Numbered from the stretch's first letter, positions 2,116 to 31,687 are shown. The stretch is DNA of 64,000 nt from Thermoplasmata archaeon (GCA_020348445.1 CP070751.1:2149186-2213185); one strand, 5' to 3'. Program-made: numbers and translations. Notes: generated by a model from the sequence alone, not told the origin.

Positions 2116-2121
2116 CAGGGA

Positions 2122-2874
2122 TTACAATCCAGAGAGGGCTCCTGCCAAGGCGATGGAGTTCGAATAGTCCTTTTTAGAACGGGATGTATCGATAAAGACC
2201 TTGTTGATGTTGACGATGGGGGCTCCAATTGCTTTTCCTCCGCCCATGAAGTGCAATGCCCTGAACATCAGATTTCCAGTGATTCCATCAGGAGCCACTA
2301 TGATATTGGAGGATTCAAGGGCCTCCTCGAGCTGGATTCCGAAATGTTTCGAAGAGATGCCCTTCTTGTTTGCCATTTTAGTGAGTTTCTCCCCCTGTTG
2401 GAGGGTCTTATCCACTGTTTCGTCCCTGCCCATGTCCTCGAATCTTCCCCCAGAGAGCACACCTGCCTTAGTCTCGACATTGAACTTCGAAAGAAGTTCA
2501 GATCCCAAGGATATGATTTTCAGTTTCTCTTCCAGGCTTACTCCTTCATCAACACCCACTGGCGCAAGTAGTATCAATTTCTCGTCACCCATGACCAAAA
2601 AGGCGATTCTGAGGATATTCTTAACCTCCAATCTGGATTTTACGTTGGTAAGCACGGTTTTCGCCTCTAAAGAGCCCCTGACTGCGGCATTTATTTCACC
2701 CTTTTTTAAGGCTTCCACAAGGCTAAGGGCATCGTTGTAAACTGTAACATCCGCAAAACCCTCGCGCTCTGCTGTCTTTACGCTACTTTCGACAGCAAAG
2801 CCTCCACCATCGCCTATTCCGATCTTTGCCTTATTATTCTTAGCCATTTCCTGTAATTGAGATATAGCGAACAT
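2122..2874 (-). CDS. mtxX: MtxX / methanogenesis marker protein 4 family (phosphate acyltransferase-like fold)
   Basis: Motifs AAVRGSL, LLAPVGVDEG, GVLSGGR.ED.GR, APDGITGNL.FRALHF, FIDTSR resemble the MtxX family as I recall it. Confidence 0.7.
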   Translation of the reverse strand: MFAISQLQEMAKNNKAKIGIGDGGGFAVESSVKTAEREGFADVTVYNDALSLVEALKKGEINAAVRGSLEAKTVLTNVKSRLEVKNILRIAFLVMGDEKLILLAPVGVDEGVSLEEKLKIISLGSELLSKFNVETKAGVLSGGRFEDMGRDETVDKTLQQGEKLTKMANKKGISSKHFGIQLEEALESSNIIVAPDGITGNLMFRALHFMGGGKAIGAPIVNINKVFIDTSRSKKDYSNSIALAGALSGL

Positions 2875-2973
2875 GACCTCACCTTTATGATTGATATCGG
2901 TTGACGAAACTCCCCCAATACCATGTCAACTGCTGGGTTTGTACCGTTGCGTTAATATTTATTTATTTCGGGT

Positions 2974-3429
2974 TCATTGGGCAAAATCAGCACTGTTTTG
3001 GTACTCCTCAGATGGATAATAGGCACCAGACAAGCCACAGAAGGGGCAAATGACGTCTGTAAAATAAGATTCACTCACAAAAAAGATACAGTTACATCTT
3101 GGACATATTATATCCTCTCCAAGATAATATGAACGTGTATAATCCAATATTTGATCATTTTGCTCAATTATATACATACTCGGCTTCACAGTCTTTTTCC
3201 AGTCGAAAAAGGAGAAGGCTGTTGTAAACAAAAAGAGTGGAAGGAGAATGAATAAAAGAAGTATCATCTCGATTTGTGCCTCACCGTATTTATTGATATT
3301 GATTATGGCAGAATAGTGGTTGTTTGAATACGCACAAACAAAGAGCCAAACCATGAGCAGAAAAATCCCCAGCATCAGAGAATCCCCAAACAATCTTATC
3401 ATCTTGATGGTGCAGACAGTTTTTGGCAA
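2974..3429 (-). CDS. 2-TM membrane protein with C-terminal Zn ribbon (paralog of 7462..7935)
   Basis: Two hydrophobic helices around NIN.YGEA..EMI; tail CPRC-x15-CPFCGLSG; start could be the ATG at 3402. Confidence 0.75.
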   Translation of the reverse strand: MPKTVCTIKMIRLFGDSLMLGIFLLMVWLFVCAYSNNHYSAIININKYGEAQIEMILLLFILLPLFLFTTAFSFFDWKKTVKPSMYIIEQNDQILDYTRSYYLGEDIICPRCNCIFFVSESYFTDVICPFCGLSGAYYPSEEYQNSADFAQ

Positions 3430-3643
3430 GGCTTCACTCCCAATTATTCTGACTCAGAAATATATATGGCCATGGAATATTTTAGAATTGTTGGTTTACA
3501 AGTAAACCTTTTTAAAAATAAATAAATACATTGTGATTTTAAAAAAGGCCTCCCCCCCACCAATACCCCCTCCTCCCACCCTATATTAAAATATGGATTT
3601 AGAAATGAAGTATATTCATTAGTTGGTATTCAACACGTCATAT

Positions 3644-4612
3644 CTACTGGATCTTTACATCCTTTCTTATTTCTTTACCGCATACAAAACAGGAGTCATT
3701 TCTTTCAAGGGGCAGAACCGAGTAATTATTATTCAGAAAATCCATCAAAAGTACGCCTTTTAAAGTGGGCAGCCCACATACGATCTTCATTGCCTCGTTG
3801 GCCTGCACGCCACCCACTATTGAGGCTACACTTGAAAACGATGCTACAGCCCCAACATCGTACCCATCACAGGGATTTGAAAGCTCCATGATCTCGGCGT
3901 ACCGATCCAAGGGTATGGTGCATGCAAGACAAGCTCCATCTGGCAAATATGTCTGGACTCTGCCCTGAAACTCAGAAATCCCACCATCCACCAGTGGAGT
4001 GGAATTTTTTACACAGAAAGATGCAAGCCAGACCCTTGCCGGCATGTTGTCCAGGCCACTTAAAATCACATCAGCATTCAGTTTTTGCTCATCACATTCC
4101 TCGATCCTTTTTGGAATCGATTCAATTTTTGTATAAGGACTGTTTTCTTTTATCTTCTTTGCCAGAACCTCAGCCTTGTTCCTTCCAACATCCTCCTTCT
4201 TAAACAGGCTCCTGCTCACATTTGAGAGCTCCACAGTGTCGTAATCCACGATTTTTATGGTTCCGAATCCAAGATAGGCAAGGTTCTTTACTATCTCGTT
4301 TCCAAGAGCTCCGGCCCCCACAACCAAAGCATTGGCTTTCCTCAGCTTTTTCTGCCTATCTCCAAGTGAGATCATCTGCCTTGCCCAAATATAATCTACG
4401 ATGACCTCGTATGAAGGTTTGATATCTTCCTCAAAAGACGCTTCCTCCTCATCCTTCTTTACAAATATCAGGTTCGTTAGTTCGGGCTCGATTTCTAATT
4501 TACTGCAGATCTTATTCTTTAGTTCCTCCTCATCCTCATATTCAACTTCAAAAGATGAAACTGAAGGCAAAACAACTTTTACCCTCTTCTTACTTCTATC
4601 ACCGTGGGACAT
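3644..4612 (-). CDS. E1-like activating enzyme with N-terminal ubiquitin-like (beta-grasp) domain, E1b
   Basis: ARQ, LVVGAGALGNE, DYD.VELSNVSR, GLDN, LVDGG, Zn site CLAC...CFVC, candidate catalytic Cys in SNPCDG. About 70 extra N-terminal residues (KVVLP..SFEVE...LKNKICSKLEIEPELTNLIF) resemble the ubiquitin helix/strand pattern. Confidence 0.88.
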   Translation of the reverse strand: MSHGDRSKKRVKVVLPSVSSFEVEYEDEEELKNKICSKLEIEPELTNLIFVKKDEEEASFEEDIKPSYEVIVDYIWARQMISLGDRQKKLRKANALVVGAGALGNEIVKNLAYLGFGTIKIVDYDTVELSNVSRSLFKKEDVGRNKAEVLAKKIKENSPYTKIESIPKRIEECDEQKLNADVILSGLDNMPARVWLASFCVKNSTPLVDGGISEFQGRVQTYLPDGACLACTIPLDRYAEIMELSNPCDGYDVGAVASFSSVASIVGGVQANEAMKIVCGLPTLKGVLLMDFLNNNYSVLPLERNDSCFVCGKEIRKDVKIQ

Positions 4613-4651
4613 GAAAGCCCTCTATATACATAAATCGATTGTTGAATATAA

Positions 4652-4903
4652 TTATTCGTCTTTTCCGCCAACGATGTCCAAGGGCATGATGGCAAGCTGA
4701 GAGTTCTCCACGATACCAAGTTCCTCTACAGTCCTGTTTTCATCCAAAACCTCGCCGCCGTACATAAGGGCCACCGCTGCGCTGTTTATGCCAAATGCCC
4801 TACATACCTCCCTTTTCACCATATTGATGGTGTGTCTTGGATCCACATCGATTTCAGCAAGGCCGGCCTCTTCGCCAATGGGTGCTTGTACCATTACCTT
4901 CAT
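4652..4903 (-). CDS. Ubiquitin-like protein precursor (mature end G79-G80, KDE pro-peptide)
   Basis: Aligns by eye to ubiquitin (DVDPRHTINMVK ~ EVEPSDTIENVK; LMYGGEVLDENRTVEELGI ~ LIFAGKQLEDGRTLSDYNI). The DNA reads ATC GTT GGC GGA AAA GAC GAA TAA. Confidence 0.9.
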   Translation of the reverse strand: MKVMVQAPIGEEAGLAEIDVDPRHTINMVKREVCRAFGINSAAVALMYGGEVLDENRTVEELGIVENSQLAIMPLDIVGGKDE

Positions 4904-4941
4904 ATCTTTTATCCCCCTATTTTCTTGTATTTCTTTAACAT

Positions 4942-6228
4942 CTATCCACCATGGGATACATTTACCGTGATTGCAACCTCGGCAATATATAGATTCCTAT
5001 CTTCAGCCCTTATTTTTATTTGATAGGTGCCGTTTGTAAGTAATTCTGTATCAAAGTAAGTGAGGTAAACGAGCTGATCATAATGGGTTTCGTTTACATG
5101 GGTCCAATCAACACTCCCGTTCCGAAAGAAAAACTGCACTTCATGAACATTATTCTCCACATCTGCAACCACTGCATAAACAGGGATGACACCGTCGATT
5201 TCATCACCATCGCGGGGTTCTAAAAATCTCGGCTCTGGTATATCTGGAGTATTATCTATAACGAACAGTTCCGACATCCCTTCAAAAGTCCTTCCCTTGG
5301 TATCTGTGAAGTTCACTTTGATATGATAGGTACCCTCATTGTGTAACCTTGTGTCAAATGCGAGGTGGTAACTGTTTTCAGAATAAGTGCCAACATTTCC
5401 AAGGTAATTCCATCCCAGACTAGTCTGACCCAAATAGAACCTCAATCCTTCGGCGGTAATCCTCCCGTCTAAGACAGTAATATTCGCAAAAACATTCATT
5501 TGATCCCTGAAAATCGGTGTTCCCAGTTGGTTTTTATACAACTCTCCGAAAAGCAGGACGTCATCCACACTTGAATGCTTCGAATTCTCATTTTGGTTTT
5601 TCGGGACAAACGGGCCTCCTATGAGCATGCTCAAAAGTACAGCAATGGTTACAAAGGCTATGATTTTTCTATATGAATTCTTTGGCTCTTCTCGCAAGGG
5701 TTTGACCTCCCCCTCATTATCTTCCGTTTGAAAAGTGGGCTTTGGTGGTTTGGGAGGAGACGAGAAAGAATCAGGAATCTTCTCCTTTTCATCGGAAAAA
5801 ACATGCACCTGGTCATCTTCGAGTTGGATCACATTTTCGTTTTTGTCAAGTGTAAAAAATGCCAATTCCTCCTTCTTGGGATCCACTATCAAGGCCGTTA
5901 CATAGTCTGAGAACTGCTGAAAGTTCCTTTGGGTGATGATATCGATTGGAGACATGAACAAACCAAAACCTGGATGGGAATGGTACCAACCCATTATCCT
6001 TCCCTGAATCTCCCCGGATAGTATCCTGTCTGTTATTTCTGCTATGCTTTTGGGATGCAACGAGGCCATTGTGGATTGCGAATCCTGCTCCCCGGTAATG
6101 GCCTCCTCAATTAAAATTGTATGATTCTCAGCATATCCTACGAGGAGTCCTATTATCTCGAAATCAGTGGCCTTGGCCTTCTCCATAATACTGTCAAGAA
6201 CCTTTTTCGGGATGCTGACATAAAACAT
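4942..6228 (-). CDS. Membrane-anchored Rpn11-like JAB/MPN+ (JAMM) isopeptidase with extracellular Ig-like domains
   Basis: FEIIGLLVG (catalytic Glu) and GWYHSHPGFGLFMSPIDIITQ (JAMM motif, about 5930-5990); TM IIAFVTIAVLLSMLIGGPF preceded by YRK; C-terminal Ig repeat FDT.LLTNGTYQIKIRAED. Confidence 0.88.
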   Translation of the reverse strand: MFYVSIPKKVLDSIMEKAKATDFEIIGLLVGYAENHTILIEEAITGEQDSQSTMASLHPKSIAEITDRILSGEIQGRIMGWYHSHPGFGLFMSPIDIITQRNFQQFSDYVTALIVDPKKEELAFFTLDKNENVIQLEDDQVHVFSDEKEKIPDSFSSPPKPPKPTFQTEDNEGEVKPLREEPKNSYRKIIAFVTIAVLLSMLIGGPFVPKNQNENSKHSSVDDVLLFGELYKNQLGTPIFRDQMNVFANITVLDGRITAEGLRFYLGQTSLGWNYLGNVGTYSENSYHLAFDTRLHNEGTYHIKVNFTDTKGRTFEGMSELFVIDNTPDIPEPRFLEPRDGDEIDGVIPVYAVVADVENNVHEVQFFFRNGSVDWTHVNETHYDQLVYLTYFDTELLTNGTYQIKIRAEDRNLYIAEVAITVNVSHGG

Positions 6229-6424
6229 ATGAACACATCTTTGCGACTACAATCTCTTCTAAAGCTTTACCTCAATAAATAGTTTTTTCCTGGCTTTCTG
6301 AGAATAATGAACTATCCCCTCCTCTGCACCCCTCCTCCCACCCTACGGCTATGTCATTAACAGTCAGTATCTTAAGCCTAGGGGCTCCCAATAACCCCAC
6401 CAACCTTATATCCCCTCCACCCCC

Positions 6425-6568
6425 CCCAAGAACAATATTTGTAGGTACGAATGCCTATCTATAGGGAAGATTCCCTCCACCGCTCCCCTCCGCCCACCCA
6501 AGAACAATATTTGTAGGTACGAATACTCCTTTATAGGGAAGATTCCTTCCACCACTCCCCTCCGCCCA
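6425..6568. repeat. 72-bp tandem direct repeat, 2 copies (6425-6496, 6497-6568)
   Basis: Manual alignment gives 65/72 identity, with the first 28 nt (cccaagaacaatatttgtaggtacgaat) identical. Confidence 0.9.
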
Positions 6569-6652
6569 CCCTATTCTGGTAATATGTTAGAAAAAAAGTT
6601 CTTTAAAATTGATAACCTCGATCCTCTCATCTATTCTCAATCACCCATGGGT

Positions 6653-7342
6653 CTATCCGCGTTTTATGGGAAATCCGAACATCCTGCAGATCTTGGCAAC
6701 CTCCTGGCATTTTTTTGTCTTGTAGGCGCTGTAAGGATTTGGGTCAGAGAGAAGGAAATAGAGGGCATTTATCACGGCTGCCAGTTTGGTGTTGGGTAGC
6801 CACTTCTTGCCTAGAATACTAACGCAGACCTTCCCTTTTTTGTGGGCAATGATATTGGGATGGGAAATATCTGTCAGCCATGTCACAGATGGAGGCTTGT
6901 AGGGATGTAGGTAAGACAGGGTCATTTTGAACTCATGCCATTTCACATACTCGACAAAGGGCCAGACACCCCTGTCGGCAAGATCCTTGACATAACCTCT
7001 TTCACATCTCAGCTTTCCGGTGTAAGTCATGAGATCCACCATTTTCACAAGGGGGAACTGGGTTCTCAGATAGTTGTACTCCTCGATCAACTCAGCCTCG
7101 TCTATTGCGGCAAAAATTCCAAGGGGCATAAGCCCCAGAACATCCGAATCTCCCATCTTCAGGTCACCTAGGGTAACCTCTTCAGAAATGACATTACCAT
7201 GCTGTACAAAACAAAGGTTTTTACTCTTAAGATTCATTGAGTTGCAAATATAATGCTTGAGCTTCCATAATGGGCAAGATGGTTTTATGTCCAAAGCTAT
7301 GGAAAACCCGTCACCTATTGGTGCGTAAACTACAAGCTGCAT
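6653..7342 (-). CDS. Ubl-E2 fusion: N-terminal ubiquitin-like domain plus ubiquitin-conjugating (UBC) domain
   Basis: UBC signature HPYKPPSVTWLTDISHPNI...GKVCVSIL...W.P...VINALYFLLSDPNP with the active-site Cys codon at 6824-6826. The N-terminus MQLVVYAPIG...MPLGIFAA parallels the free Ubl MKVMVQAPIG...MPLDIVGG. Confidence 0.9.
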   Translation of the reverse strand: MQLVVYAPIGDGFSIALDIKPSCPLWKLKHYICNSMNLKSKNLCFVQHGNVISEEVTLGDLKMGDSDVLGLMPLGIFAAIDEAELIEEYNYLRTQFPLVKMVDLMTYTGKLRCERGYVKDLADRGVWPFVEYVKWHEFKMTLSYLHPYKPPSVTWLTDISHPNIIAHKKGKVCVSILGKKWLPNTKLAAVINALYFLLSDPNPYSAYKTKKCQEVAKICRMFGFPIKRG

Positions 7343-7377
7343 TACAACTCACTTTCGGGCATTTTGTACGAAAGCCT

Positions 7378-7394
7378 GCATATTTATATATTTC
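7378..7394 (-). promoter_or_regulatory. Putative BRE/TATA promoter of the Ubl-E2 gene
   Basis: Minus strand reads GAAATATATAAATA about 40 nt upstream of the ATG at 7342. Confidence 0.45.
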
Positions 7395-7461
7395 GCAGTC
7401 TGTTAATCAATCTGGTAGCTTACAAATATTAGTAAAAAGATCGAGCAAGCAGGCCCGGTTA

Positions 7462-7935
7462 TCATCGCCTGATGTTCCTTATGATCCTTACACTTGGTCT
7501 TGCCTCATCTTGGGAATGGGTCCCTGTCAAACCGCAATTCGGACAGGTTATAAGCCCGTTTGAACACGTTAAATTCGAATCAAATATGAATTGACATCTG
7601 GGACATACTGCAACTTTCTCTTGGAGGAATTGATAGGTGGTTGGGGTGTCAATCAGCAAATACTTATGGGACATAATCTTTCCCTTGGCCTTCCATGTCT
7701 GCCTCCAATCCATAAAGGATAATGCAACCGTGAGCATGAACAAAGGTAATAGAAAGAAAACCAGGACTATCATCTCGACATGGGCCTCGCCGTAGTTGTT
7801 GATATTTACAGTTGTGCGGTAATCATTGGAGAGATAAGCCGATAAAAACAGCCAAATCAACATAAGAAAAGAACCGAGCATTAAAAAATCCCCGACCAGT
7901 CTTAGACGTTTCATCTTATCGATTTTGCCTGCCAT
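7462..7935 (-). CDS. 2-TM membrane protein with C-terminal Zn ribbon (paralog of 2974..3429)
   Basis: RLVGDFLMLG..L...WLF..AY..N.Y....NIN.YGEAHVEMI shared with the paralog; tail CPRC-x16-CPNCGLTG. Confidence 0.75.
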   Translation of the reverse strand: MAGKIDKMKRLRLVGDFLMLGSFLMLIWLFLSAYLSNDYRTTVNINNYGEAHVEMIVLVFFLLPLFMLTVALSFMDWRQTWKAKGKIMSHKYLLIDTPTTYQFLQEKVAVCPRCQFIFDSNLTCSNGLITCPNCGLTGTHSQDEARPSVRIIRNIRR

Positions 7936-13113: not shown

Positions 13114-14682
13114 TTATTCATAACCTCTTTTATCATCATACGGATATTGGTTCCAATAATGATATGGGCTCGTTTCCTTCTGTGACCTGGAAATATCCGT
13201 GGAGAGACCAGCATAGTACGAGCCGTGTCTCTCTTTTATCTGTTCTTCAATGGTCTTGCTGTGTTTCATTGCCTTTTTAATATGTTTTGCAGAAATGAAC
13301 TTTGATTCCTCTATCACCGCGATATCGCCTGCAGCCCTGATGAGCCCTCCCAACTCCCTAAGACGCAGGCTTAATGCATGGTTTCTGTTATCGATTTCCT
13401 TAGCCCTTCTTAATGATTCATCAATTATCGTCAAAACAGCGTCCTTTGTCGCGTGGGGGATCTTGCCGTCCATGGTTATCTCCTGGGCAACGAATTGAGC
13501 CATCTTGCTGCGGTTTATTTCTGAATCCTCCATTGTTGTCTCAACCAGTATCTCATATCCTGAACCTATGATTCGCGATCTTAATGGGGATAGAATACTG
13601 GGAAGATCCTGAATATTGCAGGCTCCCACAAATATGAAATCGCAGGGCACACCGTTGACCTTAACACTGGCTCCTGCGCTCTGAGGATTTCTCGCCGTTA
13701 TAGGGAAACGCTTTTCCTGCATGGCTGTGAGTATGTACCGCTGCAAATGCCCCAGATGGGGAAGTTCATCAACAAATAAAACACCCTCATGTGCCTCATG
13801 AATAGAACCTGGCACGACCCTCTCAAAGGGTGGGACACCTAGCTGAGGATGTCCTCCGTAGGGATCGTGTTTCACATCCCCCAAAAGCTCTGTTTCACTG
13901 GCCCCTGTTGCAAGGACTACGGGCTTTCTTTCCAGGGGAACCAGAACCTTCCTTGGGTCCACCTTCTCAAACTCCCTGCGTTTTTCAAGGGCTTTTTGGT
14001 CCAGTACCTTGATCCTCTTTCCTGCTCTTTCGAACACCACGACCTCTTCTTTGCCGAAACGCTTTCTTGTTGTGGTCACCCTTTCGTTCTTCTTACCCAG
14101 GGTTCCAACTGTTACTTCGATTAAGCCTCCGAAAATATCACTGAACGGATTGTCAGAGTGTTTCTGTTGTGTGATTTTAATCTCACCGCATTTTGGACAG
14201 AAACGTTCGGAGGCAGAGGAGTAAGCGCCGCAGCTCATGCACTTGTAGCCCAATTTCTCGGCAACATTGATGGGGGCCTCCTTGGGATCGATGAGCTCTC
14301 CCTCTGCAAATTCCCAAGTCTCCCGCTCCTTGTAGACATCATCTTTGCCCTTCACCTCAATAAAGGGCCTTTCAGGATTTTCGGGATTATGAACCACCCT
14401 CACCTCCTCTGTGGGGGGTTGCAATCGCAACGACAAAGCCTGAGCGATCATGGATTTTCCTGTACCGGGAGGGCCAACTAGTAGAAAATGCCTCTTTTGC
14501 GACGCCGCCACATAAGCCAGGTTCACGGCTTCATCCTGACCTATTACCCTCTGAAGCGGATCCTGGGGTATCTGAATATCAGCAGTTGTACTGATACTAT
14601 CAAGGTACAGGACTTTTGATTCGTCCGTACTTTTCTTTGCAGTCTTCGACTTCTGTGCCATTGATTCGACCCCATTTCCCAC
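13114..14682 (-). CDS. LonB-type AAA+ ATPase lacking the protease domain, with Zn-ribbon insert (Lon-2-like)
   Basis: LVGPPGTGKS, LLGDVKHDPY, HEAHEGVLFVDE, PLRSRI.G.GYE, LRLRELGGLIRAAGD; CMSC...CPKC insert; ends without a Ser-Lys protease domain. Confidence 0.85.
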   Translation of the reverse strand: MGNGVESMAQKSKTAKKSTDESKVLYLDSISTTADIQIPQDPLQRVIGQDEAVNLAYVAASQKRHFLLVGPPGTGKSMIAQALSLRLQPPTEEVRVVHNPENPERPFIEVKGKDDVYKERETWEFAEGELIDPKEAPINVAEKLGYKCMSCGAYSSASERFCPKCGEIKITQQKHSDNPFSDIFGGLIEVTVGTLGKKNERVTTTRKRFGKEEVVVFERAGKRIKVLDQKALEKRREFEKVDPRKVLVPLERKPVVLATGASETELLGDVKHDPYGGHPQLGVPPFERVVPGSIHEAHEGVLFVDELPHLGHLQRYILTAMQEKRFPITARNPQSAGASVKVNGVPCDFIFVGACNIQDLPSILSPLRSRIIGSGYEILVETTMEDSEINRSKMAQFVAQEITMDGKIPHATKDAVLTIIDESLRRAKEIDNRNHALSLRLRELGGLIRAAGDIAVIEESKFISAKHIKKAMKHSKTIEEQIKERHGSYYAGLSTDISRSQKETSPYHYWNQYPYDDKRGYE

Positions 14683-14754: not shown

Positions 14755-16047
14755 TTAGTTCAAATCATTTTTGGTAATAATTTCAATAGATGTCACCTGT
14801 TTCGCCACGTTCCCCAATTTACTACCCACAATTGTGGATATACCCTTTTCTGTGGCAATGTCGATCAATCTTTGAGTGATGATTCCGTCGAATATCAGTG
14901 TTTTGACATCACTTGAGGATTTTTTCAGGGTTTCAGCCAGATTTCTTACAGGGGTCTCATCCACCACTGAACCTGATGGATTTAACATCTTGGCCTTGGA
15001 TGTGCCTGACAATTCGCCTAAAATTCCCTTGTATTTTTTCTGTTCCTCGGACAGTATCTTGGTTTTCTGATCGTTTTTTGCTGGCCTTTTACTGGTGGTA
15101 TCCCCTCTTTTGGCTGGTGGTTTTACCCCTCTGTTCTTCTGATTTTTTGTTGTTTGGGGGCCTTGTGGAACCCTTTCTTCGGATTTTGTTGTGGCTGCTG
15201 GCAATTCGATACCCTCCAGACCGTACATCTCCACATACTGCTCGGCAGGTATCTTGTTTCTCAATCCCTTCATAATCTGTTTCTGGGTTAAATCCTCTAC
15301 CTCCCTGGTCTGCGGTGCCCTTGCCACAAAGTCCACTTCAGCCACCTGAAGCAGTTCTCTTAAGATGAGTTCTCCACCTCGATCACCGTCCACAAAGGCT
15401 GTGACCACCCTCTCCTTTGAGAGGTCTTGTATGGATCTGGGGATATTGGTGCCCTCCACGGCTATGGCGTTCTTTATGCCATGTTTGAGGAGGTTCAGCA
15501 CATCAGCCCTTCCTTCCACCACTATAATGGCGTCAGAAGTGGGAACGTTCGGTCCCGCAGGGCATTTATCCTTTCCATAGTGGATGATCTCCTCCACCTG
15601 CACCGATTGTCTCACAGATGCCGTGAGGCTTTCCCCTGTATGATTCGATTCAGCCATGAGTGTGGACAGGAGACTCTTTGCCCTCTCCACTATCTTCTTC
15701 TTTTTTGCCAACCTCACATCCTCGACCTTGGTGATCTCGATGTTGGCTCTGCAGGGTCCCACCCTGTCTATTGTTTCTAAAGCTGAAGCGAGAATGACAG
15801 TTTCCACCTGATCCAGGCTTGAGGGGATGGTAATCTCACCCTCAGATTTGCCCTTGTTTTGACCTATTTCAACCTCAATCCTTCCAATTCTTCCACTTTT
15901 CTGCATATCTCTTAAATCAAGTTCGTTTCCCAAAAGCCCTTCCGTTTGTCCGAAAATAGCACCTACAACATCTGGTTTTTCAACTATACCTTCTGCGACT
16001 ATGCTAGCCCTGATTAGGTACTTTGTAGTGCTTGGGTCTATATTCAT
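14755..16047 (-). CDS. dnaG: Archaeal DnaG-type primase
   Basis: GIVEKPDVVGAIFGQTEGLLG, TOPRIM IIVVEGRADV.NLL...AFVDGDRGG; RBS GAGGTGA before the ATG at 16047. Confidence 0.96.
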   Translation of the reverse strand: MNIDPSTTKYLIRASIVAEGIVEKPDVVGAIFGQTEGLLGNELDLRDMQKSGRIGRIEVEIGQNKGKSEGEITIPSSLDQVETVILASALETIDRVGPCRANIEITKVEDVRLAKKKKIVERAKSLLSTLMAESNHTGESLTASVRQSVQVEEIIHYGKDKCPAGPNVPTSDAIIVVEGRADVLNLLKHGIKNAIAVEGTNIPRSIQDLSKERVVTAFVDGDRGGELILRELLQVAEVDFVARAPQTREVEDLTQKQIMKGLRNKIPAEQYVEMYGLEGIELPAATTKSEERVPQGPQTTKNQKNRGVKPPAKRGDTTSKRPAKNDQKTKILSEEQKKYKGILGELSGTSKAKMLNPSGSVVDETPVRNLAETLKKSSSDVKTLIFDGIITQRLIDIATEKGISTIVGSKLGNVAKQVTSIEIITKNDLN

Positions 16048-16434
16048 GTATTTCACCTCTTTTTATTGGATTTTTTCAGAAAAATGACCTCACCCAAATA
16101 CAGTGGAGACACAGATTCCACCTCCTCTTGAGAGGGAACCTTATTTTCAGTTTTTCCCAAATGAATGCGATTTATTGTCTCAAAGGGTGTAACATTAACT
16201 CATGAATGAATGAAATTGATGATAGTATCATACACTCTTAGTCATTTTCCTGCGCAACCTAATTAACCCTCTCTTTATTTAAAAGTTTCGAAATGCCGGA
16301 ATTTACCTTAGAACCGCTTAAATAATGGCATTTGCCTTGGTTCTTACCATTTAGGATGAAGATATTTTTCATGCAAATTTAATTTGATATAACAAAGAGC
16401 TAAGTTACAAAATCTCAGAAAAGGACCCATTATC

Positions 16435-16827
16435 CTAGGGTTTTCCCGCACCTTGAGTTTTTCTTAACCGAAGACGCTTACCTGCAGGAAAGAACAACCC
16501 AAGTAAAAAAAGGATCAACATACAAGGCATTATGACAAAGAGGGTGAGGATGGTAATGGCAGATGGTAAATTACCACCGATGCTCCTAAGTGCAGCCTGA
16601 ATCGCGATAATAAATATGAACATCGTGATTAGGGTCATTAACACATAGAGGGTTTCCTGAAAGGAGTACCGCCAATCCTCTTTTCCCCTGGGGTATCTCA
16701 ATCCAAGGTAAATGAGCCCAAAAAATATTATTATGCACAGGGCCCACCATAAAGGAACGCCCAGCCAAAGCAACATAACGAAGCCCCCGAGTAAGAGAAA
16801 CAGAAGCATCCAATCCAGATCATTCAC
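16435..16827 (-). CDS. Small multi-TM membrane protein
   Basis: About 4 hydrophobic helices; the start overlaps the AAA gene stop by 8 nt. Confidence 0.65.
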   Translation of the reverse strand: MNDLDWMLLFLLLGGFVMLLWLGVPLWWALCIIIFFGLIYLGLRYPRGKEDWRYSFQETLYVLMTLITMFIFIIAIQAALRSIGGNLPSAITILTLFVIMPCMLILFLLGLFFPAGKRLRLRKTQGAGKP

Positions 16828-19800
16828 CTCTATGCTCTTTGATGAAATTACTTAACCGTTTTTGTAAAACTACCTTTTTACCGTATGGTTTTAAGCCATG
16901 GCTCTTGCACTCGTTCTCCAGCTGGGATATTGTCATAATAGCTATGTCCTCGTCCGTGAGCATCACCGAGGGTGGAGGGGGGGGAGGAGGTGCGGGAGTT
17001 TGCGGGGGCCTCTCAAGGGGTTTTTGTACATTGGGGGCCTGTGGGGGAGGAGCTTGTAAGGGTGTTTGTGGCAAAGGAGGTAGGGGGACGGATTTCAATT
17101 CGGCTTTCTTGATATTTTCCTCCCATTCAATAACCGAGGGCTTGACCTTCTTTAATGCACTCTGTAGATGGGACATTTTAATGCCCAGAGGCTTTTTCTT
17201 GGATTTTTCGGGTCCAGAAAATATATCCTCTCCGCTTAAAGCCAAAAGCTTTGCTTCCTCCACAACTGCAAAAACATCCTCGCCACTGAAGCCCTCTGTT
17301 GCCTTTGCAAGGGTCTCAAAATCTATCTTGCCTATTTTCGGAACATCTTTCAGATTCATCTCAAAAATCTTCTTTCTAACAGAGATATCAGGGGGTGGTA
17401 CAAATATCTTTTTATCGAATCTTCCTCTCTTAAAAAGCGATGGATCCAGGGCATCGGGATTCTCGGACGCCCCAACAACCACAATAATATCGTTGGGCTG
17501 GATGTTATCCAACATTGACATGAATATGGACAATGCTTTTTTACCTTCATCAGTCTCAAGGTTTTGTTGCGATGCAATGGCCTCTAAATCAGAGATGAGC
17601 AAGATCGCAGGAGCCATGTCTCGAAGCGAGGACCAAAGACCTTTGATTGCCAATGTGCCTTCGGCATTTATGGCGTTTAGAAGCTCACTTCCCGTTATTT
17701 CTGAAAGGGGAATGCTATATTGATTTGAAATTGCCTTCATTAGATAGCTCTTACCGCAGCCAGGGGGGCTGTGAAGAAGAATCGCCCTGCCTGTTTTCAA
17801 CTTGAACTTCTCCACGAGCTTCCTTTTTGTTAAGGGCATAACCACCGATTCCCTAAGCTGTTTCTTGATATCTGTAAGACCAGCAACCTTATCAAGTGTT
17901 ACAATGGCCTTTTTTTCTCCCCTTACTACATCATGAACCTTTCTTTCGTAGCGCATTTTTATCCTTTCGTACTCCTCTTTCATGGTTAGTGATATGCTGG
18001 GCTTGATTCTGGGCAAAATATCAAGAAAATCCTTATGGGTTATGGTTGTAAGCTGCTTGGTTTTCATGGAGCGGCGCATGGCATTTGTTGCTCCTTCCTT
18101 TACTAAATTGGCCATGTCAGCTCCTGAAAATCCCTCTGTCCTCTTTGACAAGGTATTTAGGTTTATGTTCTCGGCAAGAGGTTTTCCAGCTAGATGCACC
18201 TTCAATATATCTATTCTTTCTTTATAATCTGGAGGAGGGACATAGATTATCTTATCGAACCTACCGGGACGAAGCAACGCGGGATCTATTAATTCTGGTT
18301 TGTTTGTGGAGCCCACGATTATTATACCTGTTGCCTTATCCATACCGTCCAGCTCGGAGAGCATAATGGACAGCAGCCTGGGCGTAACATCATCTGCAGA
18401 GTAAAGGTCCCTGCGTTTTGCTACTGCATCGATTTCATCAAAGAATATGATGGCCGGTTTTCTTTCCTTTGCAGTCTTAAACAGGGTCATCATCCTTGTT
18501 TCGCTCTCGCCGTACCACTTGGACATCAGATCCCCGCATTTAACAGTGAACATTTCCACGTTAAGTTCCGTGGCAAGGGCCTTCATAGTAAGTGTCTTTC
18601 CACACCCTGGGGCTCCAAAAAGAAGTATACCCTTTGCAGGCTCCACTCCGAATTGTTCGGCAATATCGGGTCTTAGTAGGGGAACTAGCACGCTTTCTTT
18701 TATGTCCATTTTCACATCTTCCAATCCCCCCACCTGATCGAATGTGGTCTTTCCCAAATCAGCCATTTCACTGACCCTGGCACCCACTGTACTTGCCCCC
18801 ACCTTGCTTGTGAAGTACTCCCTGAACATCTCCCTAACTACAAAGCTCGTAACAACTGTTGTGTAAATTGCACAACCTGCACCGATAAATATTAGTGTGG
18901 TTCCCATCATAACCAGCATTTCAGTTGAATTGAGGTAGCCAAACCAGTAAATTGCGGCAAAGGAAGAAAGTACTATGGTGCAGATGGAAAACATTGTAAC
19001 CTCCCTGAATTTCCAGCTTGTAAAAGGATAGGCCAGCCATTCGGTCAATTTTGTGAAGCTCAGACGCTTTTTCGAATCAATGAGGTAGGATAGCAAAAAT
19101 ATACCGAAACACCAGGCTGCGAGAACGAAGAACGGAAGCATGGATGTTGCAAAACCCTCTGCAAGAACCGAGCCTATTATATCACTTTCTGCAAGTCCTA
19201 CATCCCACATGACACTTGCTAAGGTGCCTGGGGTAAAGTTGGAGACCACGGGTTTTGAGAAAATCATGAAAGCTGTTGGGTGATCAGCTCCAGCCATAAG
19301 ACCCATCACATGATAATTGCTGGCACTAACCAGTAGAATTAGAAATACACCTGCGCACATGGAAACCGCTATTGCCAGGAATGTGGAAAAGACCATGATC
19401 GTGAATACAGGGACGATGAAGGGTACGCCGAATTTGGATAGGAAAATCATGAGAAAAACCAGATACCCGAACTTCCAATCGTAGAACGAGCAGAGCATTA
19501 CAACGAGGCTGAATACCAGAAACACCAGGCCGAACTCAGGGCTTTGATAGGCAGCGGATCCTGTAATAAACAGGCTTAACAAAAGCAGTGCTGAATATGG
19601 GAATTTATACGCAACCACGGCAACGAACAAGGAAATGATCAGAATCACCCACCAGGGATAAAATGGAATAAAAACCGCACCAAAAACGCCGAGCATGAAA
19701 AAGGCTATGGGAGTTATGATCCTGGGATGCTTTGTTTCCTTGGTAAATATGTCCCAAAACTTGGTTCTTAGGCCTTGGTTTTCCTCTTCGTTACCCTTAC

Positions 19801-20980
19801 CAAAGGTTTTTTTCTTCTCTGTAAGCTCAAGCAGCCTCTTTCGCTGTTTCTTATAGAACACCCAACAAAATGCAAGAGGAATGAACAGGGCACCTATAAT
19901 TCCCGCATAATCGTACCAATTGGGAAATCCCACAAACTCCCGCACCGGCTCAGCTTTTGCCTTGAAGGAGAATGTTATCTGGTTGTTGTTTTCATACGGA
20001 ATTGTAATCTCCCTTGTCTGCGTTCTCGAGTCATATTCCACCTCTATCACATAATCCCCAACATGGAACATTTCGGGAGCCATAAGGAGGCCCTTGGCGT
20101 TGGTCAGACCCGTATATACTATGCCTGTATCGTTCATTATTGTGACTGAGGCCCCAGATGCAGGTTGTTGGTATTGATCCAACACCTCGATTACCATGTC
20201 ATAGATGTAGATTGTATTGGACGGACCCACGGAATATCGATATATAGGGGAGGTAATTGAAGAATAATACTGATCGAACGCCGTTATATTAAATGATACA
20301 TTGGAGTCCCCCTCATACCCAAGGATTGTAGCGTTCATCAACGTTTGGCTTATGGAATTGAATGATGCATGACCATTCCGAGTTGCTCTTCCTGGAGTTT
20401 CGATTTCCCATGAAATCGTGGCGCTTGTTATGGGGACATCAGAGGATATGGATTGGATTCTGATTCCCACACTCTGATAGGGATTGGGATTCTCAGGCTC
20501 CATGTTCACAATGATATTTTCTTCAAAGGTGCCCCCGCTCCAGGAACCGTTTCTAGCCACTTCATATGAAAACTCTTGGGAGTATATTGGGACGTTTATC
20601 TCGTCATAAGCTACAGTATAGAAGTTTACAGATGTGTCGCCTGTATTTTGATAACCTGGTATTAAACAGTACATCTTAGTTTGGGCAGAATTCGCGTATT
20701 CAAAAGTGTATCCTCCCTGGGTTACGACACCATCTCTTGTGAAGTTGCAGAATAAATATGCGGAGTTGATCTGTTGGGAGGTGCTAGTAGAGGTTATGGT
20801 TACATTCACAGGTTCGAGATTATGGGGACTTGTAGGTGTAAAACTCAAAGCTAGGTTGTCGTTAAACTCCGTGCCCTGCCACATTCCCAGAACACTAAAT
20901 GAACATACAAGAATCACAGTCAATTGTGCAAGTACTGAGGTTATCACGATATTTTTCAATTTCATATTGATCTGAACCAC
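16820..20980 (-). CDS. Polytopic membrane protein fused to tandem Cdc48/VAT-like AAA+ domains; C-terminal Pro-rich linker and SAP-like domain
   Basis: Signal peptide, about 320 aa extracellular beta-rich region, many TM helices. D1: GAPGCGKT, KWYGESE, IFFDEID, DPALLRPGRFD. D2: SPPGCGKS, LISDLE, RGRFDK. Tail MTISQLENECKSHGLKPYGKKVVLQKRL. Confidence 0.88.
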   Translation of the reverse strand: MVQINMKLKNIVITSVLAQLTVILVCSFSVLGMWQGTEFNDNLALSFTPTSPHNLEPVNVTITSTSTSQQINSAYLFCNFTRDGVVTQGGYTFEYANSAQTKMYCLIPGYQNTGDTSVNFYTVAYDEINVPIYSQEFSYEVARNGSWSGGTFEENIIVNMEPENPNPYQSVGIRIQSISSDVPITSATISWEIETPGRATRNGHASFNSISQTLMNATILGYEGDSNVSFNITAFDQYYSSITSPIYRYSVGPSNTIYIYDMVIEVLDQYQQPASGASVTIMNDTGIVYTGLTNAKGLLMAPEMFHVGDYVIEVEYDSRTQTREITIPYENNNQITFSFKAKAEPVREFVGFPNWYDYAGIIGALFIPLAFCWVFYKKQRKRLLELTEKKKTFGKGNEEENQGLRTKFWDIFTKETKHPRIITPIAFFMLGVFGAVFIPFYPWWVILIISLFVAVVAYKFPYSALLLLSLFITGSAAYQSPEFGLVFLVFSLVVMLCSFYDWKFGYLVFLMIFLSKFGVPFIVPVFTIMVFSTFLAIAVSMCAGVFLILLVSASNYHVMGLMAGADHPTAFMIFSKPVVSNFTPGTLASVMWDVGLAESDIIGSVLAEGFATSMLPFFVLAAWCFGIFLLSYLIDSKKRLSFTKLTEWLAYPFTSWKFREVTMFSICTIVLSSFAAIYWFGYLNSTEMLVMMGTTLIFIGAGCAIYTTVVTSFVVREMFREYFTSKVGASTVGARVSEMADLGKTTFDQVGGLEDVKMDIKESVLVPLLRPDIAEQFGVEPAKGILLFGAPGCGKTLTMKALATELNVEMFTVKCGDLMSKWYGESETRMMTLFKTAKERKPAIIFFDEIDAVAKRRDLYSADDVTPRLLSIMLSELDGMDKATGIIIVGSTNKPELIDPALLRPGRFDKIIYVPPPDYKERIDILKVHLAGKPLAENINLNTLSKRTEGFSGADMANLVKEGATNAMRRSMKTKQLTTITHKDFLDILPRIKPSISLTMKEEYERIKMRYERKVHDVVRGEKKAIVTLDKVAGLTDIKKQLRESVVMPLTKRKLVEKFKLKTGRAILLHSPPGCGKSYLMKAISNQYSIPLSEITGSELLNAINAEGTLAIKGLWSSLRDMAPAILLISDLEAIASQQNLETDEGKKALSIFMSMLDNIQPNDIIVVVGASENPDALDPSLFKRGRFDKKIFVPPPDISVRKKIFEMNLKDVPKIGKIDFETLAKATEGFSGEDVFAVVEEAKLLALSGEDIFSGPEKSKKKPLGIKMSHLQSALKKVKPSVIEWEENIKKAELKSVPLPPLPQTPLQAPPPQAPNVQKPLERPPQTPAPPPPPPPSVMLTDEDIAIMTISQLENECKSHGLKPYGKKVVLQKRLSNFIKEHRGE

Positions 20981-22448: not shown

Positions 22449-25400
22449 CTAATTTCCCTTCCTTTTTTTCCATAACTTCTTCTTTTTTCCATAGGACTTT
22501 GTTGTCCCGCTATCTTTATGCACATTTGAATCCTCGATATTTGCGGCCTCTACTTCCTCTGCTATGGTGGGTTTGGCCTCAGGAGAGGGAATGGATGGTC
22601 CTTTTTTGGGAACCCCTTCATCATCCCCAATCTCGATATCATTGATGGATTCCATAAGTGATTTTCCATCCTCTTCGGGAGGTGGAGGAGGAGGGTAATG
22701 CAATTTAGAGTCCTCCTCTCCTCCAAAATCCTCTGTTTCTGCAACCTTTGCCTCTGACTCTCCCCCTTTCACTTTATTTTTTCGGCTTAATCTACTTCTG
22801 AACCTTCCACCGCCTTTTCCTTCCTTTGGAGGCTTTGGGGGCTTCTTCTCCTCTCTGTACCATGCCTGTAATTTTCCCACTTTAAGCAATACGAACAAAA
22901 GTACTATGAAGAAGAGCAAAAAGAGAAAGCCGATGCCTGCCAGGTTCTCCTGAAATGCGCGCCACAGACTTTGGGGATTGTCCACATTCACTTTGGTTCT
23001 AAACATTTGCTCATTACCCAAGGTATCCACAGTTTTAATCTCGTAGTAATAGGCTCGATTATCGTCCTCTGTTGTGAACCAGCTGAATGTATAGTTACCG
23101 GTATAATTGTCATATATCATTGCCCTCCAGGTGGTGCTGTCTATGTTGATATAGACCCCAGCAATTCCCGTATCATCGCTTACATTCACAATGAATTTGA
23201 TATGACTGGCCTTGGTGGCAAAAGGAGCGGGATTTACCAACATTATCGAGGGGCCTGTATTGTCAACGAACACTGTGGTTTCACGATTTGATTCCTGGCC
23301 TGTGAAGTCAATTGAATTGACATATATCGTATGAAGGCCATCCTCAAGCTCTAAGGTATCGATGGTGGTCTCATATGGAGCATTGATTCCAACTGTAACC
23401 ATTTCAACCTCTGCATTGTCATCAATGCTCATTGTCACTCTCCGCACACCGCCGCCTGCATAGACACTAACTAAAAGTTCATCACTTACATGGGTTCCGT
23501 TGTTTGGCTCCAAGATCACAAGTTCAGGGGCGATATTATCCACTATAACTGTCACACCCCTCTCTGTTATATGACCTGCCTCATCCACGGCTTGTACAGT
23601 GATCAAATGCTCGTTGTCGCTTACCAAAGTGGTGTTAAAGGGATCTTCAATGGGCACCCAACCGCTGTCATCCACAGTGTATTTCACTGTATAATCAAAT
23701 GTATCGCTCACCAAAACATCGATTATTATCTCATCTGAGACGTATTCACCATTTGAAGGGGAGTTTATGGTCAAATCTGGGGGTGTATTATCCACGCAAA
23801 AGGAAATGGCTTCTGCGTCTGTCCATTTTCCTGAGTCATCGAAGGCCGTGGCGTTGATGACGTAGACTCCATCATCTACTGTCCGTGTATCGATGCTGTA
23901 CTCGTAATATCCGGTCTCGCTGTTGTACGGTAGCTCCATGGTTAGGCCGAACACTTCGATGTTAACGTAATCCACACCCACATAATCTGTTGCCGAGATT
24001 TCGAAAGTGTAGATCTTCTCTATGAATTGATCCTCCACAGGGGAAATTATGGAGCATTTTGGAGGTGTGTTGTCAACGTACACATTGATTGTCTGCTGTG
24101 TCAAATGTCCTATCATATCGAAAACCCGGATAGAAAGAGTGTGCCACCCGTCAATTGTGGCAGAAGTGTTCCATGGCACGACTATGGGCTCCCAACCCTT
24201 GTCATCGATGCTGTACTCCTGAGGCCCGATAAATGCATCCTGCGCAGATATGTTCACAAATATCTCGCCTGAAATGTAGTCTCCATTTTCTGGGTAGATT
24301 ATCTTCAGAACTGGTGCGTGATTGTCAACCTTGAAGCTAACAGGGCCGTCTGAAACCATCTTGCCAGAGAGATCATATGCCCAGGCCGAAACATTCCTCA
24401 CATTGTCCTCTGCTTCCAGCCTAGTATCAAGGGGGAATTCGAAGTAACCTGTCTGCATGTTGTAAGAGGCGTTTACGAGCATACCATAAACACTGATTTC
24501 AACGTAATCTATTCCCACACCGTCAATTGCTGCGATTTGGAAGATGAATGTGCCTTCAACGTACTGATCGGGGGCAGGTGAAACTATGGTGCATGTTGGA
24601 TCATTGTTGTCCACAAAGATATCGACATACTGCTCTGTTGTCCTGCCAGCATGGTCGATTGCCATGATACTGATTCTATGACCCCCATCAACTTCCAAAT
24701 TGGTGTTCCATTCCGCTTCCCAATAGCCATCAACATTGGGATTCATTGCTATCCAGTTCGTCATGTCGATTCTATATTCCACTGATAAGATGAATGTATC
24801 CGTAGCAGTAACATTTATGGTGTAATTCCCCTCTATGAACTCGCCATTTTGAGGATGATTTACCACCAAATTTGGCGCATTGTTGTCAACATTGAAATTC
24901 ACAGGTTGTGCAACTGCAGATTTGCCTGATAGATCATAGGCTGTTGCACTCACATCGTAGGGGCCGTCAGTAATAGTGTATGTGCTAGCTGTGTACTCGT
25001 AATACCCTGTTTGTGCATTGTAAGTGGCCAATTGTGTTGATCCGAAAACAGTGATTTCCACATAATCAATGCCTATATGTTCCACTTGCGGTGAGTCATC
25101 AGCAGCAATCTGGAAGGTGAATACCCCTTCCACGTATTGACCCCCAATGGGAGTATTAATGGTGATAGCAGGATCATTGTTGTCTATTATTACATCCACT
25201 GACTGCTCTGTGGTATGACCCGCAGCATCATGCGCCCTGATTGTCAGGGTATGCTCTCCATCTGTGTACAGGATCGTGTTCCAAACCTCTGTCCAGGTGG
25301 GCTCAGGTCCTGTCATGGCCACCCATTGCGTTGTATCCACCTTGTACTCCACAGCACTGATAAAGGTATCTGTAGATGTAACACTCACATCATAATTACC

Positions 25401-30862: not shown

Positions 30863-31687
30863 ATGAACCAGATTTTAATGGATATAAAATTCCCCAAATG
30901 CTTAAATACGCAAATACTAATCCAAAGGTCGGTTCTGGCAATGAATGGCTCCGCATGGATGATTTACATCATCCTTTTTGCAGTTGCATTTCTTCCTTCC
31001 ATAGCCTATATAATTTGGATAAGGAACACTGAAAGATATGAACGTGAACCCTGGAGTGTAATAGCTAAAACTTTTGTTTGGGGTGCTGTTTTTGGGGTGA
31101 TTCTAGGCATTCTCTTCTCTGTAATTTTGATTGTACTATTCAATATAGCCCTGCCCGACAGGTTGTACGATGCCATCTCAGAGAACGAGAGCTATTCCAC
31201 ACTGTTTTTGGTCTGTATAATCGCTCCTTTGGCCGAGGAGGCTGCAAAAGGCATCGGCGTAAGATCAGCGGGAAATGAACTGGACGAGGTTGAGGACGGT
31301 CTAATATACGGCGCTTCTGTGGGGCTGGGATTTGCTGCCACTGAGAATGTGCTCTATGGATATTTGGCACTGCAACAAGGCTACGATGTTTTTATAGCCA
31401 CTATGATCGTAAGAAGTATTTCAAGCGCACTCTTGCACGCAAGTGCAACATCTGCAACAGGCTACGGTATTGGCAAGAAGAAGATACTGGGAAAAGGACA
31501 TTACATCCTGCCATACTACTTTTTAGCTGTGCTGATGCACAGTACTTTCAACCTCTTTGCATCCATGCAATCACTATTGGGCCTAATGCTTGCCATCATG
31601 TTTGCAATCGCCGCAATCGAATTCACTAGGCATAAGATTCAACAGTTGGATGAATACCATTTGGTCCGGGGGGGTTGGGGAGGATAA
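30863..31687 (+). CDS. prsW: PrsW-family intramembrane metalloprotease
   Basis: EREP, APLAEEAAKG, GLGFAATEN, LLHA, LMHSTFN; multiple TM helices; the true start may be downstream (MNGSAW). Confidence 0.85.
   Translation: MNQILMDIKFPKCLNTQILIQRSVLAMNGSAWMIYIILFAVAFLPSIAYIIWIRNTERYEREPWSVIAKTFVWGAVFGVILGILFSVILIVLFNIALPDRLYDAISENESYSTLFLVCIIAPLAEEAAKGIGVRSAGNELDEVEDGLIYGASVGLGFAATENVLYGYLALQQGYDVFIATMIVRSISSALLHASATSATGYGIGKKKILGKGHYILPYYFLAVLMHSTFNLFASMQSLLGLMLAIMFAIAAIEFTRHKIQQLDEYHLVRGGWGG

Follow-up and report, generated by a model that had tools for sequence, protein, structure and literature searches.

Classical AAA proteins are hexamers that thread polypeptides from the N-terminal to the C-terminal face of the ring, and the membrane-anchored AAA motors known to us (FtsH, Yme1, Msp1, Bcs1, and archaeal LonB) hang on one or two helices. 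In a stretch of 64,000 nucleotides from a Thermoplasmata archaeon (GCA_020348445.1 CP070751.1:2149186-2213185; referred to as the window throughout), one gene encodes a protein with an unusual anchoring, in that its classical AAA ring is joined to an ectodomain and to a large, highly conserved polytopic domain that belongs to no named family. This protein, which we call the motor, is of the membrane-anchored AAA translocase kind and comes with a new membrane-domain family and with what appears to be a new conserved four-gene system. An original prediction, made from the DNA sequence of the window, had proposed such a fusion and had allowed that its architecture might already be characterized with a different function; our literature search returned no description of a polytopic-membrane-domain AAA protein of this architecture.

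By sequence, the motor is nearest to VAT/Cdc48, by layout to FtsH, by its proposed action to Msp1 and to extraction as in endoplasmic reticulum-associated degradation (ERAD), and by its genomic theme to MoxR-vWA-immunoglobulin (Ig) modules. On the defining features tested, it lies outside the Cdc48, FtsH, and MoxR families. With VAT, Cdc48, and p97 (PDB 5vc7 and 5g4f), it shares two tandem classical AAA modules with AAA_lid_3, and its first module (D1) has a pore loop of the Cdc48 D2 type, KW[YVF]GESE. However, an ectodomain and 11 transmembrane (TM) helices take the place of the N-domain (Pfam matched neither CDC48_N nor CDC48_2, and the N-terminal 745 residues consist of signal peptide, ectodomain, and membrane domain), the membrane-distal ring is degenerate or absent, no HbYX-like motif is found at the motor C terminus, and both modules resemble VAT D2. 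The Cdc48/VAT model TIGR01243 reaches 442.4 bits over the whole motor, below its cut-off of 802.65. The designation "Cdc48-like" in the original prediction therefore holds for the two AAA modules with their lids and for the similarity to VAT but not for membership in that family.

FtsH and the mitochondrial AAA proteases share with the motor an extracytoplasmic domain, a membrane anchor, and an AAA ring lying under the membrane with its entry face to the bilayer. In contrast to FtsH, which has two TM helices, the motor has 11, carries an extra, degenerate AAA ring, and is without the M41 protease; Peptidase_M41, like any other protease domain, is absent from its Pfam matches, and the FtsH model TIGR01241 gives 372.2 bits, below its cut-off of 600. 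Msp1/ATAD1 and Bcs1, compared at the level of the AAA fold, are likewise classical AAA rings tethered to the membrane, and their substrates are membrane or translocated proteins, which they do not feed to a fused protease. As a functional parallel for drawing out a single-span anchor by its cytosolic tail, they come closest. However, each has only one TM helix and one ring, and both an ectodomain and dedicated operon partners are lacking. NSF combines an active D1 with an ATP-binding, nonhydrolyzing D2, the same split that is predicted for the motor from its motifs, but NSF is a soluble protein, carries an N-domain, and has SNARE complexes as its substrates. MoxR-vWA modules with Ig-like surface proteins make up the secretion system that Makarova, Galperin, and Koonin (2015) predicted for archaea (PMC5898192). 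Like these modules, Bat-type operons included, the locus described here links an AAA+ gene to genes for secreted vWA, Ig-like surface, and small membrane proteins. The ATPase, however, is a classical-clade protein (PF00004 is its top Pfam model with 217 bits, and AAA_5 appears as a by-hit with 25.5 bits) fused to a polytopic membrane domain, whereas MoxR is soluble and of the COG0714 or AAA_3, AAA_5 type, and no DUF58 gene lies at the motor operon.

Architecture and AAA modules of the motor

The motor gene is a single uninterrupted open reading frame (ORF) of 1386 codons (window 16820-20980, minus strand). Its likely start is the ATG at 20965, which gives a protein of 1381 amino acids, because this codon overlaps the TGA of the preceding vWA gene in an ATGA and agrees with the N termini of homologs; residue numbers given here count from the GTG at 20980, i.e., +5 relative to the ATG. 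A database copy of 1381 amino acids (P0002) is 100% identical. The domain order is signal peptide, ectodomain of three beta-sandwiches, first TM helix (TM1), ten-helix membrane domain, D1, second AAA module (D2), Pro-rich linker, and SAP domain. Pfam finds PF00004 and AAA_lid_3 (PF17862) twice each, the SAP domain, and a weak CarboxypepD_reg match at residues 266-338. The best NCBIfam model is the CDC48 model TIGR01243, followed by those for PAN and FtsH, all three under their cut-offs. The domain search thus upheld the predicted fusion of a double AAA protein with a membrane part and added the SAP domain, which had been overlooked.

The same fusion recurs in at least 40 independent Thermoplasmatota genomes, including the closed records CP070672, CP070739, and CP070629, and the window gene itself sits on a single 5.16-Mb contig. 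An assembly artifact, a concern raised at the outset, is therefore excluded by the many independent genomes and the closed chromosomes that carry it.

D1 had been described as intact and D2 as keeping Walker A but having an altered Walker B and no aromatic pore loop, and both descriptions proved correct. In the window protein, D1 carries Walker A GAPGCGKT, pore loop SKWYGES, Walker B IIFFDEID, TN, and RPGRFD. It has all the features of a classical AAA module (PF00004): Walker A and B, a second region of homology with two Arg fingers, and pore loop 1. D2 has these features only in part: Walker A is SPPGCGKS, Walker B reads ILLISDLE, the pore loop is NAINAEG with no aromatic residue, the sensor-1 Asn is replaced by Glu, and the first Arg finger is replaced by Lys. 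Across the family, D1 is nearly invariant in 42 of 42 sequences (GxxGCGKT, S[KR]WYGES, hhhhD[ED], DDVTPR, TN, and RPGRFD), while none of the 28 D2 sequences has a pore-loop aromatic. Walker B of D2 takes several forms (SD, TE, ED, DD, and others), and the Walker motifs of D2 are degenerate in most members. One clade has a disrupted Walker A in D2 (GPKGCQKL), two loci encode D2 as an ORF of its own, and an entire clade (about 13 loci with proteins of about 1055-1070 amino acids) is without D2, which is therefore dispensable. Because D1 is invariant and D2 is degenerate or absent across the family, the proposed picture of an active D1 and a structural D2 appears to generalize beyond the window. 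Some 30 residues separate D1 from the last TM helix, which places it in the cytoplasm just under the membrane, and its motifs suggest a functional translocase ring.

Among solved structures, both modules are closest to VAT D2 (E = 1e-135 for D1 and 2e-71 for D2); they do not pair with VAT D1 and VAT D2, respectively. The original prediction had also suggested comparing the motor with other AAA subfamilies by phylogeny. In a quick tree, the D1s group tightly (support 99) and the D2s sit on long branches; the references in this tree are the genome's own VAT and PAN, which cannot place the family among all AAA subfamilies. The motor family appears to be a new AAA subfamily. In the clade with a split-off ectodomain described below (L011, L040, L048-L050, L053, L054, and L056), the D1 Walker B is DD, not DE, and Walker A, sensor 1, and the Arg fingers of D2 are intact; labor may be divided differently between the rings in this clade. 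Furthermore, the distant family member P0062 (1080 amino acids) has an Intein_splicing segment, residues 444-614, inserted in its first AAA module.

Ectodomain and ten-helix membrane domain

Hydropathy analysis showed an N-terminal signal sequence, a helix at residues 356-377, and a hydrophobic block at residues 419-715, and ten further TM helices follow TM1. In the alignment of homologs, small residues at positions -1 and -3 are conserved ahead of [MILV]WQG, which argues for a cleaved signal peptide. An AlphaFold2 model of residues 345-745 (35 sequences; predicted local distance difference test [pLDDT] 88, predicted template modeling score [pTM] 0.88) shows ten short membrane helices after TM1, which extends into the cytoplasm, together with an amphipathic helix on the cytoplasmic side and, at residues 554-614, a loop that contains a beta-hairpin. 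Counted backwards from the cytoplasmic AAA part, the predicted topology is N-out, with 11 TM helices, and C-in. Two independent signals agree with this topology: all nine N-x-S/T sequons lie in segments predicted to be outside, seven of them in the ectodomain and none in the 671 cytosolic residues, and lysine plus arginine residues in the membrane part number 24 in inside loops versus 2 in outside loops. ORF, Pfam matches, and topology together bear out the prediction of one protein with signal peptide, ectodomain, polytopic membrane part, and two AAA modules, and anatomy and conservation support a membrane-integral classical AAA motor.

The model of the ectodomain (residues 33-350, 39 sequences, pLDDT 91) consists of three beta-sandwiches. 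The first two resemble the FN3/Ig-like extender domains of SiiE and of an ice-binding adhesin (Foldseek E of about 1e-8), and the third is transthyretin/CnaB-like (Z 11-11.6, root mean square deviation [rmsd] of about 2 over about 80 residues). Fold searches with this model found no enzyme fold, and the ectodomain looks like a stalk or docking module. In one clade, the ectodomain and TM1 are encoded by a separate, adjacent upstream gene; the ectodomain is apparently a separable subunit.

For the ten-helix membrane domain, neither Pfam (E <= 10) nor NCBIfam returned a matching model, the ESM Atlas gave no usable match, and a profile of the domain matched just 39 clusters among 1.84 billion representative proteins. 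By these searches, the domain represents a new family. A Foldseek search of its model against the PDB returned nothing under E 0.07 (best E 0.075). In the wide VIA-align search, matches had Z <= 8.4 and were chiefly to energy-coupling factor (ECF) S-components and MreD, over the last six helices. The best of them, BtuM (8ovv; Z 8.4, rmsd 5.0, 161 aligned), is under the tool's guideline of about 13 for helical bundles, and an ECF S-component or MreD-like fold was therefore kept as a lead, not a match.

Conservation in the membrane domain peaks in turns, with PFYPWW, AAYQxPEFG, and a beta-hairpin loop with H567 on the outer face and YKFP and SFxDWxFG on the inner face. Invariance in the widest alignment is limited to Pro, Gln, Gly, and aromatic residues, which argues for a structural or binding rather than a catalytic role. 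On the same grounds, an intramembrane enzyme with a Ser/His/Glu or metalloprotease site was set aside. The domain has distant relatives beyond the Thermoplasmatota. One of them, P0056, from a metagenome-assembled genome of the Nezhaarchaeales, has the first ~200 membrane-domain columns (hhalign probability 95.9%) fused to a KaiC/RAD55-like ATPase; its gene adjoins a second KaiC-like gene, with no surface-protein partners nearby. Because of this KaiC-like fusion, the domain appears to recur as the membrane part of ring ATPases.

Operon and partner proteins

The motor gene is the third of four co-directional genes whose ends overlap or almost abut, in the order giant Big_7/Big_13/LTD protein, vWA protein, motor, and 4-TM protein. 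In the window, the overlap between the motor and 4-TM genes is 8 nucleotides. Loci with only 30-45% membrane-domain identity to the window keep this four-gene order, and so do most of another 40 genomes, each from the Thermoplasmatota; one sub-lineage has the giant gene on the downstream side, not upstream. As far as gene order and literature go, this appears to be a conserved four-gene system that has not been described before. The motor family is single-copy per genome and patchy, being present in 38 of the 401 sampled Thermoplasmatota genomes, with 19 of 24 in one family and 0 of 48 and 0 of 53 in two others.

A signal peptide, a single strongly hydrophobic C-terminal helix, and a low-complexity cytosolic tail are common to all giant proteins examined, except that the signal peptide is unseen in L009 because a contig edge cuts the 5' end of the gene. 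The tail is 135-187 amino acids long with a two-ring motor versus 53-86 with a one-ring motor, and the groups do not overlap, a contrast that rests on roughly one phylogenetic split. Giant proteins of the two-ring clades share the tail motif LM[EDSG]S[VI]xD[AI][ED][LI]. In the one-ring clade (L055, L057-L060, L063, and L065-L068), adhesin tail and motor C terminus both end in an acidic Trp motif (..NWE..), and this suggests a shared binding partner. The giant tail of clade B contains an RNA_pol_A_CTD-type helix-hairpin-helix (HhH) domain above the Pfam cut-off (L009:5780-6319 and L035:6741-7340). SAP in the motor of clade A and HhH in the adhesin tail of clade B, both small domains of a DNA-binding type located in the cytoplasm, occur in a complementary fashion, and clade C has neither.

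The vWA protein has a signal peptide, a poly-proline stalk, a Gly-rich hydrophobic segment of 11-15 residues, and a charged tail; the pattern of stalk, hydrophobic segment, and charged tail is common to all clades. The vWA domain of the window partner scores 60 bits, and the metal ion-dependent adhesion site (MIDAS), DxSxS/T/D, is conserved in seven of eight partners. C-terminal anchor and tail are kept even where the vWA domain is replaced or lost. In L002, for example, the vWA domain is gone, and an ORF of 77 amino acids retains the anchor and tail. The stop-to-stop frame upstream of this ORF (L002:9648-10001) encodes more than 30 alanines in a row, a simple GC-rich repeat at the site of the vWA deletion. 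The features of the motor and its operon are listed in Table 1.

Table 1. Positions of the motor, its domains, and its operon partners in the window
Feature	Residues	Window position	Strand	Evidence or remarks
Whole motor gene		16820..20965	-	ORF, Pfam, identical database copy, ATGA overlap
Signal peptide	6-32	20885..20965	-	Basic n-region, 19-residue h-region, small -3/-1 residues
Ectodomain (predicted)	33-355	19916..20884	-	Two FN3/Ig-like beta-sandwiches (tandem repeat) and transthyretin/CnaB-like (CarboxypepD_reg) domain
TM1	356-377	19850..19915	-	Hydropathy, structure model
Basic cytoplasmic loop	378-421	19718-19849	-	Lies directly after TM1
Ten-helix membrane domain	422-715	18836..19717	-	AlphaFold2 model, alignments
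AAA D1	750-1015	17936..18733	-	Walker A, Walker B DE, pore loop KWYG, sensor 1, two Arg fingers; predicted active
AAA D2	1028-1290	17111..17899	-	Degenerate: Walker B SD, no pore aromatic, sensor-1 Glu, first Arg finger Lys
Pro-rich linker ahead of SAP		16949-17110	-	Between D2 and SAP
SAP domain	1349-1380	16841..16936	-	Pfam 30.2 bits, cut-off 23.9
Giant Big_7/Big_13/LTD surface protein, 2737 aa		22449..30662	-	Type-I membrane protein; Pfam, topology
TM of giant protein		22887-22943	-	Strongly hydrophobic C-terminal helix
Cytosolic tail of giant protein, 145 aa		22452-22886	-	Motif SLMESINDIEI; sequence
Secreted vWA/MIDAS protein, 474 aa		20962..22386	-	Poly-proline stalk, short Gly-rich hydrophobic C-terminal anchor, charged tail
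Small 4-TM protein, 130 aa		16435..16827	-	Overlaps motor stop codon; kept downstream of nearly every family member

Proposed function and genomic surroundings

The best explanation of these observations would make the motor a subunit of a four-protein cell-surface apparatus specific to Thermoplasmatota. As to its action, we tentatively propose, with a little less than an even chance, that it works as an AAA hexamer integral to the membrane and as a translocase, its D1 ring pulling on the co-encoded surface proteins by their cytoplasmic tails or anchors. The motor probably hexamerizes through its AAA rings, which would place the D1 ring directly under a ring of six 11-helix membrane domains, with six stalks of three beta-sandwich domains outside the cell. 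D1 would be the working ATPase, its aromatic pore loops gripping unfolded polypeptide that arrives from the membrane-facing side. D2, where present, would bind ATP, probably without hydrolysis, and serve as a scaffold or regulatory ring. Since the N-terminal face of D1 is directed towards the membrane and threading runs from N to C, D1 should pull chains from the membrane into the cytosol; like the original prediction, we infer a pulling of substrates through or out of the membrane. The most likely clients would be encoded in the same operon, namely, the giant Ig-repeat adhesin with its disordered cytosolic tail and its one TM anchor and, as a possible second client, the vWA/MIDAS protein, whose C-terminal anchor is of weak hydrophobicity. 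Traction on such tails could extract, remodel, release, or tension the surface complex from the cell interior.

This proposal is supported by the translocase motifs of D1 in the entire family, by the loss of the D2 aromatic everywhere and of D2 itself in one clade, by the predicted topology with D1 under the membrane, by the conservation of the four-gene order across distant clades (only 30-35% identity in the membrane part), and by the long low-complexity cytosolic tail on the giant type-I protein. Long low-complexity tails are the kind of handle that AAA unfoldases use. Also, the KaiC-like fusion of the distant membrane-domain relative fits a membrane platform for hexameric motors. The vWA anchor, retained where the vWA domain is replaced or lost, seems to matter in its own right, and the ectodomain behaves as a separable subunit. 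Several points weigh on the other side. Operon linkage is no proof of a relation between motor and client, and the vWA and giant proteins could instead be co-assembled partners; in two genomes (L002/L031 and L045), motor and small protein are present but no giant gene adjoins them. With neither a protease domain nor an HbYX-type C terminus, the fate of an extracted client is unexplained. Finally, the conserved outer-face loops and the ectodomain suggest an extracellular role outside this model.

These conserved loops, present on both faces of the large and strongly conserved 10-TM domain, would suit an assembly or export platform, which we regard as unlikely. Here, the membrane ring would be a conduit or insertion site, and the AAA ring would drive or chaperone the placing, anchoring, and maturation of adhesin and vWA protein, similar to the AAA+/vWA/Ig surface modules already predicted in archaea (MoxR-vWA-Ig "secretion" modules; PMC5898192) or to Bcs1-type translocation of folded cargo. 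The ectodomain stalk of adhesin-extender-like beta-sandwiches and the operon partners, all of them surface or membrane proteins, are consistent with such a platform. However, the giant and vWA proteins carry ordinary N-terminal signal peptides, so that Sec export suffices, and threading from N to C, by general knowledge of these rings, would here run from membrane to cytosol, the wrong direction for export. Loci that keep the motor without the giant gene would fit general membrane-protein quality control, in which an FtsH-like extractor passes misfolded membrane proteins from all over the cell to soluble proteases and meets its operon neighbors as occasional clients. The motor has the corresponding layout of a membrane-anchored AAA protein with an extracytoplasmic domain, and archaea, to our knowledge, lack FtsH. 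Yet its patchy distribution, with absence from two large families, is unlike that of a housekeeping factor, operon linkage is tight in most loci, and neither a protease domain nor a proteasome-docking motif was found in the motor, which leaves this role with a distinctly low probability.

The relation of tail length to ring number could also point to a winch, in which the adhesin tail stays threaded in the AAA channel and ATP-driven pulling alters the conformation or tension of fiber and vWA head, so that putatively wall-less cells could adhere, detach, or move over surfaces in a regulated way. Folded or charged "knobs" (HhH domain, basic clusters, and acidic Trp motifs) stand at the ends of the tails, and MIDAS is intact in most vWA partners. 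Nevertheless, we hold this to be very unlikely, as the length contrast stems from essentially one phylogenetic split and we know of no precedent for a classical AAA ring acting as a reversible winch. Hardly any credence can be given to a nucleic-acid link, by which SAP in the motor or HhH in the adhesin tail would tether DNA for nucleoid anchoring or DNA transfer: the two domains are complementary in clades A and B and above their Pfam cut-offs, but clade C has neither, both folds also serve protein contacts, and the D1 pore loops are of the protein-translocase type.

The hexameric translocase that we favor can be extended to an archaeal dislocation or winch machine, in which a ring of 66 TM helices would surround the adhesin and vWA anchors and a Cdc48-type ring below would reel in their tails. 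Such a machine, an improbable extension, would be a prokaryotic counterpart of ERAD-type retrotranslocation or an ATP-driven adhesion or motility engine of wall-less archaea, and the membrane family would be a platform for AAA and KaiC-like hexamers. With its likely clients encoded next door, the locus offers a tractable four-protein system with defined tails and motifs, for which natural one-ring, two-ring, and split variants are available. Its study could reveal how the work of an AAA motor is linked to processes across or inside a membrane and what role the widespread archaeal pairing of AAA+ ATPase, vWA, and giant surface proteins plays. For annotation, it defines a new membrane-domain family and, as a candidate, a new AAA subfamily.

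Two further associations were considered and rejected. A membrane-anchored ubiquitin-like conjugation locus lies about 9 kb away (window 1333-7935) but is never adjacent to the motor in other genomes examined, which speaks against a functional link. A role as a defense system was discarded as well: PADLOC matches the generic AAA fold only (IetA and TRIP13), and the partners match nothing.

Downstream of the operon, the window contains a Toprim (DnaG-like) gene and a gene for a LonB-like AAA+ protein of 522 amino acids (window 13114-14682 and 14755-16056, both minus strand). The LonB-like protein has Mg_chelatase, LonB lid, and zinc ribbon matches; the Lon protease domain is absent from its Pfam matches. 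L002 and L007 have this pair after the operon, too. A divergent gene for a PrsW-family intramembrane protease (window 30863-31687, plus strand) is located upstream of the gene for the giant adhesin; L003, the single related locus showing that side, has genes other than PrsW upstream of the giant gene. Two more very long ORFs are present in the window, one of 1581 amino acids at 33960-38705 on the plus strand and one of 1332 amino acids at 49818-53816 on the minus strand.

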